10,974 bases of DNA from UHGV virus genome UHGV-1688096; one strand, given 5' to 3'. Position 1 is the stretch's first letter. The number at the start of each line of letters is the position of its first letter. Positions 7,570 to 8,101 of this stretch are shown here, piece after piece. The notes beneath the pieces were generated by a model. It had not been told where the DNA came from. It ran no database searches and saw nothing but the letters and a program-made list of their open reading frames with translations. Position numbers and translations under genes: made by a program. This DNA is from a virus.

Positions 7570-7794
7570 ATGAATCAGACATACATTCCATCATGCTTGA
7601 GAAATCTGCCAAAGCAGAAAGCAAAGCCCCGCAAGCAAGCCATAAAGGACGCTAAGGCAGAGGTTATTGATCAAGCAATACAATTGCTCAGGGAGGAGTT
7701 AAGAAGTGGCAAGCTCGAAGGAATGATGATGCCCTATCAGCGCGGATATCTATCGGCGATTAGTAAGTTGGAAGTATTGAAGAGTGAATTATGA
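7570..7794 (+). CDS. Hypothetical early protein (74 aa)
   Basis: ORF-track ORF 7567..7794 (GTG) trimmed to ATG at 7570; GGCGAGG SD upstream; begins 3 nt after the N stop; lysine-rich N-terminus. Confidence 0.5.
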   Translation: MNQTYIPSCLRNLPKQKAKPRKQAIKDAKAEVIDQAIQLLREELRSGKLEGMMMPYQRGYLSAISKLEVLKSEL

Positions 7795-7858
7795 ACTATC
7801 TGGAATTTCCGGATGGTTCATTGTTTTGGCAGCAAACCAATTATTTGAGAGCTGATAC

Positions 7859-8101
7859 ATGAGAGTAAAAACTATGGGCGCAAGCCCATTAAGCGGTCGT
7901 ATTTTTCAAGGAACATTAAACACTGAAAAAGGAATGTGGGTAGGAAAGAAAGAAGATGTCACCGATCAGGCAGTTAGGGCAGTAGCCGAACACATGATGA
8001 TAAAAGACCAGAAATATGCATACGAAACGAAGGATGGCAAATGGCTGATAATAAGTCATCAACTGGTTGATAAATTACCAGAAGAGTTTGTTGATGGTTA
8101 A
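7859..8101 (+). CDS. Hypothetical early protein (80 aa)
   Basis: ORF-track ORF; start overlaps (ATGA) the stop of a 23-codon ORF at 7791-7862, which in turn overlaps the stop of the 7570-7794 gene. Confidence 0.5.
   Translation: MRVKTMGASPLSGRIFQGTLNTEKGMWVGKKEDVTDQAVRAVAEHMMIKDQKYAYETKDGKWLIISHQLVDKLPEEFVDG

Follow-up and report, generated by a model that had tools for sequence, protein, structure and literature searches.

Two independent small early genes and a mosaic junction between them probably make up the N-to-cIII interval of a lambdoid prophage

The virus genome UHGV-1688096 was analysed as one stretch of 10,974 nucleotides (nt), referred to here as the window, which contains the immunity and early-left region of a lambdoid (HK620/P22-like) prophage. 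Between the gene for the N-like antiterminator and cIII, three small open reading frames (ORFs) follow one another at positions 7570 to 8101, and the original prediction described them as translationally coupled. All three coordinates and both ATGA overlaps are exact. The interval probably consists of two independent small early genes, ORF1 and ORF3, joined by a non-coding mosaic junction, rather than of three coupled genes. The proposed coupling does not hold, as the start, length and stop of the middle frame, "ORF2", vary or are absent in relatives, and the second ATGA is the start of the DUF7446 cassette formed by ORF3. The interval is a known kind of hotspot, and a 27-nt element inside the junction is of larger potential interest. 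The features concerned are the following.

7570..7794, plus strand: ORF1, 74 amino acids (aa), a real gene (phrog_5305, homologues, ratio of non-synonymous to synonymous substitution rates, dN/dS)
7791..7862, plus strand: "ORF2", 23 codons, the intergenic junction of ORF1 and ORF3 read as an ORF (frames in relatives, conservation pattern)
7791..7827, plus strand: 14-bp hairpin (7791-7821, with a 3-nt loop and two G-U pairs) followed by a TTGTTTT run (terminator scan, RNA fold)
7793..7819, plus strand: copy of a 27-nt near-palindrome, window variant GAACTATCTGGAATTTCCGGATGGTTC (IMG/VR pattern search)
7824..7851, plus strand: boundary sequence TTTTGG-CAGCAAACCAATTATTTGA-GAG (3' ends of N genes in relatives)
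7859..8101, plus strand: ORF3, 80 aa, DUF7446, a real gene (PF24233, phrog_1578, alignment)

ORF1 and ORF3 as separate genes

ORF1 starts with an ATG at 7570, 3 nt past the N stop codon, and ends with a TGA at 7792-7794; a GAGG motif lies within the final N codons. The protein matches phrog_5305 over its full length (E 4.6e-38, residues 1-74 on profile positions 1-71 of 71), a family that has no assigned function and is without a Pfam or NCBIfam model. Its 41 homologues are about 74 aa long, share 58-100% identity, and are located in prophages of Escherichia, Shigella, Citrobacter, Enterobacter, and Leclercia. The family is small, with 22 unannotated clusters found by an exhaustive profile search of 1.84 billion representative proteins, and a profile search of genome contigs with ORF1 returned 2 loci only. 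Compared with moderately diverged copies, ORF1 shows a dN/dS of 0.12-0.17. Compared with deep lineages, the synonymous sites are saturated (proportion of synonymous differences 0.78-0.86), while the proportion of non-synonymous differences is 0.17-0.26. These substitution patterns clearly point to purifying selection. In about 88 of 93 loci, ORF1 lies 3 nt behind an N gene of the HK620/P22 type, ending in ...SKQ[LV]TAR*. Judged by its sequence, ORF1 is a conserved real gene.

Other arrangements of ORF1 were noted in passing. The early-left operon of phage mEp213 has two N-like genes, of which the second precedes ORF1 (locus L003, 743-1075 and 2228-2500). In E. coli EC2001 (L006, 8932-9535), ORF1, spacer and ORF3 are 100% identical to the window and belong to a different prophage, which has a RecT-type recombination module and is integrated near ybhC. 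The N gene upstream is reduced there to a 69-nt remnant annotated as a pseudogene.

ORF3 starts with an ATG at 7859 and its stop codon lies at 8099-8101. It matches the Pfam family DUF7446 (PF24233) with 101.6 bits against a cut-off of 24.1, residues 4-72 aligning with positions 2-70 of the 70-residue profile. It also matches phrog_1578, and close copies are labelled "DUF7446 family protein" by the Prokaryotic Genome Annotation Pipeline (PGAP). A total of 61 homologues were collected. In an alignment of 38 DUF7446 sequences reaching down to 42% identity, M6, G13, I15, G18, T19, T22, W27, D33, V34, A38, V42, E44, and H45 are invariant. Because the N-terminal MK[IV]KTMGASPL is conserved, 7859 is taken as the true start. 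A tblastn search with ORF3 found 282 phage records, including virulent Ackermannviridae at about 55% identity. Further homologues occur in Salmonella P22-like phages (92% identity) and in prophages of Klebsiella, Yersinia, Serratia, and Aeromonas. Where the neighbours of DUF7446 are visible, they are small early or accessory genes: in Yersinia the gene lies between N and Erf or RecT, and in Salmonella SE1 it follows ral. By alignment and family membership, ORF3 is a conserved real gene of a broad family.

Two further DUF7446 loci were recorded. A Yersinia prophage (L108, 2314-2583 and 4001-4258) has two DUF7446 paralogues within one N-to-RecT interval, and in an Aeromonas P2-like element (L111, 4001-4261) a DUF7446 gene stands directly 3' of the GPA replication gene.

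The two genes have different relatives. ORF1 and the next approximately 60 nt match the E. coli phages mEpX2, mEp213, ECP1, and JEP4 at 98-99.6%, and at window positions 7841-7864 the best match turns to the Salmonella P22-like phages, which share ORF3. In the four E. coli phages the gene after the spacer differs each time and begins where the ATG of ORF3 stands. In 90 related loci, the slot behind ORF1 and its spacer harbours genes from at least 17 unrelated families, including DUF7446 in 11, Nmad5 in 5, a 28-aa acidic peptide in 20, and Ral in 1 locus. In the latter (L059), Ral (PF11058, 162 bits) directly follows ORF1 and the spacer. The diversity of the slot, together with the presence of Gad1 in the operon of L099, bears out the earlier claim that the N-to-cIII interval is an accessory hotspot. 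Ral, Nmad5, and Gad1 are known or suspected counter-defence genes that share the operon in relatives. ORF3 also occurs without ORF1, namely directly after a lambda-type N in L007, after ral in Salmonella P22-like phages, and in Ackermannviridae, Yersinia, and Aeromonas elements. From these contexts, ORF1 and ORF3 appear as independent modules, with ORF3 as a separately mobile cassette.

The commonest occupant of the slot, the 28-aa peptide (e.g., gp58 of ECP1; L001, 2158-2244), has the sequence MEEEFEEFEEHPQDVMEQYQDYPYDYDY; it is extremely acidic and rich in aromatic residues, and no family match was found for it. Nmad5 is located before or after ORF1 (L028, L101), and Gad1 (PF25705) lies further down the same operon in L099 (2307-3225).

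The tight packing of ORF1 and ORF3, with or without ORF2, could alternatively be that of one functional unit, for example a toxin-antitoxin-like or effector-plus-regulator pair. The genes are adjacent and co-oriented, and 18 complete E. coli genomes have them in this order at 99-100% identity, as does the different prophage background of EC2001. A functional pair is nonetheless hardly credible: in 79 of the 90 loci the gene after ORF1 comes from one of 16 other families, ORF3 is found without ORF1 in all the contexts listed above, and the nearest relatives of the ORF1 and ORF3 halves differ.

As an independent cassette, ORF3 invites comparison with Ral and the other accessory genes between N and cIII of lambdoid and P22-like phages, with which it shares the operon and, as L059 illustrates, the very slot. 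Like Ral, ORF3 is small, belongs to the pL transcript, and is swapped as a single-gene cassette. It differs from Ral in having no sequence relationship to it and in a fold that matches only uncharacterised phage proteins; anti-restriction is known for Ral only. By sequence and position, ORF3 is the positional equivalent of Ral and is not related to it.

The junction between the two genes

As an ORF, ORF2 would extend from an ATG at 7791 to a TGA at 7860-7862, giving ATGA at both junctions. Frames of this type are common by chance, with 39 ORFs of at least 20 codons overlapping positions 6800-8900. Over 92 loci, the frame comprises 9, 12, 16, 18, 20, 23 or 25 codons, or continues without a stop into the downstream gene, giving 86-230 aa. 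A 1-nt deletion is present in two of the loci and a TAG variant in one. The Citrobacter and Leclercia relatives (L010, L012) have another sequence (GTTTGAAC) in place of the ATG, and their frame is closed by a stop codon after 9-12 codons. The only family match, to phrog_37429, in which only residues 1-22 align with a profile of 106 residues, arises because the ORF2 frame fuses to downstream genes.

The pattern of conservation is likewise that of non-coding DNA. Among five deep lineages, the third codon positions of ORF1 are 38% identical (29 of 30 vary), and the 26 nt past its stop codon are 85% identical. Within ORF2, the variable columns number 3, 2 and 1 at codon positions 1, 2 and 3, the reverse of a coding pattern. 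ORF2 is annotated in none of the related deposited records. The second ATGA is the start of the DUF7446 cassette (ATG AGA), and L007 has the same bases behind a lambda-type N that ends 10 nt earlier. Since this ATGA belongs to the cassette itself, the overlap of ORF2 and ORF3 is no sign of coupling. On these comparisons ORF2 is not a gene, and the 64 nt between ORF1 and ORF3 are a non-coding junction. The comparison across related prophages that had been proposed as a check thus separates the three frames: ORF1, by its dN/dS, and ORF3, by its invariant columns, are conserved, while ORF2 is frameshifted in some relatives and lacks its start codon in others.

Two points weigh against a non-coding junction. 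The spacer copies of E. coli are near-identical and carry little information on selection, and the verdict comes from sequence, with which a short peptide starting at ATG 7791 is compatible. ORF2 might then be a translated micro-ORF: ribosomes that terminate at the end of ORF1 would reinitiate at the overlapping ATG, read about 20 codons, and be passed on to ORF3, by translational coupling or by way of a leader peptide. The ATGA overlap with ORF1 in every E. coli-type copy fits such a restart, as does the position of the ORF2 stop, which in most relatives lies 5 nt before the next start or overlaps it. Moreover, deep lineages, too, have a potential start codon (ATG, GTG or TTG) overlapping with the stop of ORF1. 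The variable length, the fusions, the frameshift and nonsense variants, and the non-coding conservation speak against translation, and ATG 7791 is buried in a stem of -20 kcal/mol and annotated by no pipeline. The 3' half of the frame is a relic of an N gene read out of frame. The peptide similarity N-x-P-E-F/I-P-D is an automatic result of the 27-nt palindrome, for which three reading frames are in use at other sites. A micro-ORF is accordingly considered improbable, and the non-coding junction is retained.

The relic can be traced precisely. Positions 7828-7848 (21 nt) correspond to the last six codons and the stop codon of a lambda-type N, GSKP[L/I]I*, which ORF2 reads in another frame. The sequence of this 3' half of the spacer, GGCAGCAAACCA[A/C]TTATTTGA, is the true N end (G-S-K-P-L-I-stop) in L007 and the end of an N fragment in L023. 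The adjoining GAGAG (7847-7851) is the Shine-Dalgarno sequence of ORF3. Together with the following GAGG or GAGA, the boundary sequence precedes many different cassettes, and the spacer is identical ahead of at least 17 unrelated genes. Further copies of the boundary sequence separate tandem cassettes in L014, L023, and L052, and a copy stands upstream of ORF1 in L010 and L098. The distribution of the stretch at 7824-7851 is that of a lambdoid boundary sequence, and the same stretch provides the next gene with its ribosome-binding site.

L023 (1820-1905) retains approximately 90 nt from the 3' end of a lambda-type N (...SEMGVTCVGRQKMKLGSKPLI*), stranded between a truncated cassette and an Nmad5 gene. 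This fragment shows the boundary sequence being carried along.

Homologous recombination at short conserved sequences between genes is described for lambdoid mosaics (PMC3233612). The boundary sequence would constitute such a short homology at which cassettes swap, and the palindrome is probably another. As with the boundary sequences of lambdoid phages ("bsq" in CUS-3), a short conserved sequence marks a module junction between unrelated flanking genes, is repeated between tandem cassettes, and includes a ribosome-binding site. In contrast to other boundary sequences, its origin is traceable, to the last 21 nt of a lambda-type N, and it is paired with a 27-nt palindrome whose range far exceeds the lambdoid phages. 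The junction is an unusually legible case of lambdoid cassette stitching.

The 27-nt near-palindrome and the hairpin

The near-palindrome abuts the ORF1 stop codon and follows the consensus (T)GAACT-A-TCCGGAA-W-TTCCGGA-K-R-GTTG. In IMG/VR, two independent half-anchored patterns, CCGGAAWTTCCGGATRGTTG and GAACTNTCCGGAAWTTCCGG, each had exact matches in at least 120 contigs. A reversed control pattern gave 0 matches in IMG/VR, and a chance or composition artefact was ruled out on this basis. Position tables show that the element is sharply bounded at 27 nt; both arms are conserved where the pattern does not force them, and there is no conservation outside. Approximately 190 distinct contexts were found, in loci of 31-72% GC. 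BLAST searches located the element in isolate phages of Escherichia, Morganella, Vibrio, Synechococcus, and Mycobacterium (the last with 2 mismatches), in P1/D6, and in Stx phages. Furthermore, 1898 of 5426 E. coli genomes contain it, within RhuM, DUF551, and P1-like plasmid genes.

All three frames of the element are used in annotated genes, yielding ELSGNSGQL, QLSGISG*, N-[YS]-P-x-[IT]-P-D-S or STIRKFRIV, and in 72% of the contexts no frame is open through it. Of 253 flank pairs with similarity up to the element, 175 were dissimilar past it, and the similarity breakpoints peak at its right edge; the pairs are not independent. One example is EaA of phage 933W and a P1 protein, which have a module in common up to the element and diverge after it. 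The element tends to sit at mosaic junctions.

Individual host genes of the element deserve mention. In a Morganella phage adenine methylase (L233, 1506-2561), it provides the last seven codons and the stop codon (QLSGISG*). In a RhuM gene of E. coli next to tRNA-Sec (L323, 998-2035), it encodes STIRKFRIV, which is presumably a conserved part of the RhuM domain, so that the element may not be an insertion there.

Several accounts of the element were set aside. It is not part of one conserved protein motif, given the lack of flanking conservation, the use of three frames, and the share of contexts without an open frame. An obligate pair of the ORF1 protein and the hairpin as its site was weakened, as L098 has an ORF1 homologue without the palindrome, and the approximately 190 palindrome contexts are without ORF1. 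The element as a generic terminator was rejected, since only 16 of 191 generic copies have a T-run directly behind them. The copies have no neighbouring gene family in common, the most frequent one being present at 11 of 120 loci, and neither multi-copy spread within one genome nor target duplication nor an associated transposase was seen. The literature search found no publication with the element sequence, and nothing on DUF551 together with a palindrome.

It is tentatively proposed that the palindrome GAACTATCCGGAAWTTCCGGATRGTTG is an undescribed element common to phages of very different hosts, which marks and possibly drives the exchange of genes and domains. The leading ideas are a recombination linker and a minimal mobile palindrome. 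It is located at gene ends and domain linkers, tolerates reading in all three frames on either strand, and coincides with mosaic breakpoints; in the lineage of the window it would have been co-opted as the stem of a terminator. Rickettsia palindromic elements (RPE), repetitive extragenic palindromes (REP) and bacterial interspersed mosaic elements (BIME), and Correia elements are palindromic repeats that insert into or beside genes. Compared with these, the element is likewise a short palindrome of many unrelated contexts, at gene ends and in frame within genes; it is divisible by three in length and is read in each of the three frames. It differs from them in being only 27 nt long and in not being confined to one host genome or lineage. 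If the proposal is true, the element would be a concrete, widespread "linker" of the sort envisaged by the modular theory of phage evolution, or else a minimal mobile palindrome of a new kind. Should the link to junctions hold in a full census, mosaicism via specific short sequences, as opposed to random illegitimate recombination, would become testable.

In the window, the palindrome is the core of the hairpin at 7791-7821, which overlaps the ORF1 stop codon. This hairpin folds at -20.3 kcal/mol (z -5.0), a stability attained by 0 of 200 shuffles. It has the sequence characteristics of an intrinsic terminator, with 14 pairs (5 GC), a 3-nt loop, and the tail TGTTTTGG. Pairing is maintained in 89.7% of cells, compared with 24-62% for slid partners, and only one pair is changed on both sides. 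In deep ORF1 lineages, the hairpin core is kept, and a second GC-rich hairpin with a T-run is added. The palindrome would have been lengthened in this lineage to a 14-bp hairpin with a U-run, and this structure is probably an intrinsic terminator equivalent to tL1, as far as its sequence indicates. If so, ORF1 would be made together with N as an immediate-early product of the unmodified pL transcript, and transcription of ORF3, cIII, and all that follows would depend on polymerase to which N has been added at nutL (7145-7186). As with the pL terminators of lambda and HK620 (tL1 and tL2A-D, which are overridden by N), a stem-loop with a U-run stands just past N and the first gene, with nutL upstream, and the window also holds the tL2A and tL2B sequences of HK620. 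Unlike in those terminators, the stem of the putative terminator is AT-rich, built from the palindrome, and overlaps the ORF1 stop. The annotated tL1 of HK620 is a different sequence, and an Rfam scan of 6800-8700 found no family matching the hairpin.

Several observations count against a terminator. The pairing of 89.7% compares with 87.8% in shuffles, and the covariation score was reached by 72 of 500 shuffles, which is not significant; positions 6 and 22 of the 27-nt element are without covariation. The ORF1 homologue in L098 does without the palindrome. Because so few generic copies carry a T-run, terminator function is at best specific to this lineage. The hairpin may be no terminator at all, with the palindrome working at the DNA level as a recombination linker, a mobile-element footprint or the site of a dimeric protein, and with the pL transcript passing it with or without N. 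The unrelated contexts of the element, largely outside any long ORF, agree with a role in DNA, as do the absence of the U-run from most copies and the use of all three frames in annotated genes (methylase, RhuM, EaA/DUF551, and a primase-like protein). The flanks that are alike only up to the element, with breakpoints at its right edge, and the 933W and P1 pair point in the same direction. On the other side, the stem in the window has three extra pairs (G1-C27 and two more) followed by TTGTTTT, none of which the generic element has, and a second canonical terminator stands right after the element in deep ORF1 lineages. In addition, the T-G pairs suit only a hairpin of RNA or single-stranded DNA on the transcribed strand. 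A role in DNA without termination is a serious contender, though not the favoured one. The favoured terminator and the DNA-level function are not mutually exclusive.

Possible roles and the surrounding features

The earlier remark that none of the three products resembles Ral, SieB or Ea10 was confirmed by profile searches, in which ORF1-3 matched no hidden Markov model (HMM) of these proteins. The Ral HMM (PF11058) did not match any of them at E<=1, while the true Ral of L059 was recognised by the same library, and there was no model of SieB, Ea10 or other named lambda pL accessory proteins among the Pfam, PHROG, and NCBIfam matches. The PADLOC database gave no significant match, the best E-values being 0.015 and 0.024 over short stretches. 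Neither protein is contained in the supplements of an accessory-gene screen (PMC12373910), and the literature search returned nothing on DUF7446, the protein accessions or the PHROG identifiers.

The remote-homology and structure checks suggested for the products were performed, and for ORF1 and ORF3 they gave confident AlphaFold2 models without placing either in a well-known family. The ORF1 protein is basic, with a net charge of about +6, and its model (predicted local distance difference test score, pLDDT, 85) consists of a disordered N-terminal arm rich in Lys and Arg, followed by a predicted two-helix hairpin. Pfam, NCBIfam, PADLOC, PDB sequence profiles, and fold comparison provided nothing informative for ORF1, and a Pfam scan of its distant relatives was empty. 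ORF3 (pLDDT 89.7) is predicted to adopt a compact beta3-alpha-beta2 fold without a catalytic motif, the matches of which were limited to uncharacterised phage proteins. NCBIfam, PADLOC, and PDB sequence profiles contained nothing usable for ORF3. The description of the frames as candidate uncharacterised early genes accordingly stands for ORF1 and ORF3, which are conserved and belong to no family of assigned function, and falls for ORF2.

Judging from the predicted structures, ORF1, with its basic arm and helical hairpin, and ORF3, with its beta-alpha fold, most likely bind a host or nucleic-acid partner during early lytic growth. Such binding would serve host takeover or counter-defence. It has to be weighed against this that no homology or fold match backs any specific biochemical role for either protein. 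For ORF3, a role as a defence or superinfection-exclusion gene that guards the lysogen can be considered instead. The region after GPA in P2-like phages often holds defence cargo, and it is directly after GPA that the Aeromonas P2-like prophage carries DUF7446; the exclusion gene sieB is also located in the N-cIII interval of lambda. A lysogen function appears unlikely, however, as ORF3 has no promoter-like site of its own in the window and belongs to the repressed pL transcript, downstream of terminator-like sites. Furthermore, DUF7446 is common in the strictly virulent Ackermannviridae, which form no lysogens, and the PADLOC match of ORF3 is not meaningful. With a role in lytic growth preferred, ORF1 and ORF3 are candidates for screens of counter-defence and host-takeover functions, being conserved and confidently modelled proteins without known relatives. 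DUF7446 is of particular relevance here, as it occupies the slot of Ral and is common to temperate and virulent phages.

The remaining features of the early-left operon and its surroundings are the following.

5815-6522: gene of the cI-type repressor
7071..7099, plus strand: pL-like early-left promoter (sigma-70 scan, TTGACC-17-TATCTT; aligns with the annotated pL of HK620)
7145..7186, plus strand: nutL, the N loading site, with boxA GCTCTTTAAC and a boxB hairpin (identical to the annotated HK620 nutL by alignment)
7294..7566, plus strand: gene of the N-like antiterminator, 90 aa, HK620/phage 21 type, ending in ...SKQLTAR* (PF25694, phrog_271)
8131..8176, plus strand: long conserved hairpin 3' of ORF3, approximately 20 bp with bulges, without a U-run (RNA fold)
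8230-8257 and 8268-8293, plus strand: two terminator-like sites just 5' of cIII (terminator scan; match the annotated tL2A and tL2B of HK620)
8320..8454, plus strand: cIII, 44 aa, the right-hand limit of the interval (Pfam cIII PF08134, 104.7 bits)
8439-8591: kil

The N-like gene matches the Pfam family N_peptide (PF25694) with 58.9 bits against a cut-off of 27.9, and its stop codon is TAA. The leader from pL to N is near-identical to that of HK620, where pL, nutL, and the terminators are annotated. The last gene in the order, beyond cIII and kil, encodes an Erf-type recombinase. Positions 7200-8500 are mosaic, because 0 phage records cover at least 80% of them.

Between ORF3 and the two terminator-like sites, the region 8100-8200 folds at -35.2 kcal/mol (z -5.85). 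The hairpin at 8131-8176 is kept in HK620, where it is unannotated, as well as in L007 and L098, with substitutions in the loop only. In L098 it stands directly 3' of ORF1. The sole match of the Rfam scan at E<=1 was mir-137 on this hairpin, with 24.6 bits against a gathering threshold of 56.7, and was taken as chance. As a guess, the hairpin could be an RNase III or other processing site upstream of cIII.

On the other side of the operon, the region from the repressor gene to pL is the usual site for exclusion genes expressed in the lysogen. In the window, it contains a 98-aa ORF (6563-6859) that is co-oriented with cI, matches phrog_18389, and has an N-terminal hydrophobic segment. This ORF is followed by a bidirectional GC hairpin (6864-6883), the position of which is that of tIMM in HK620.

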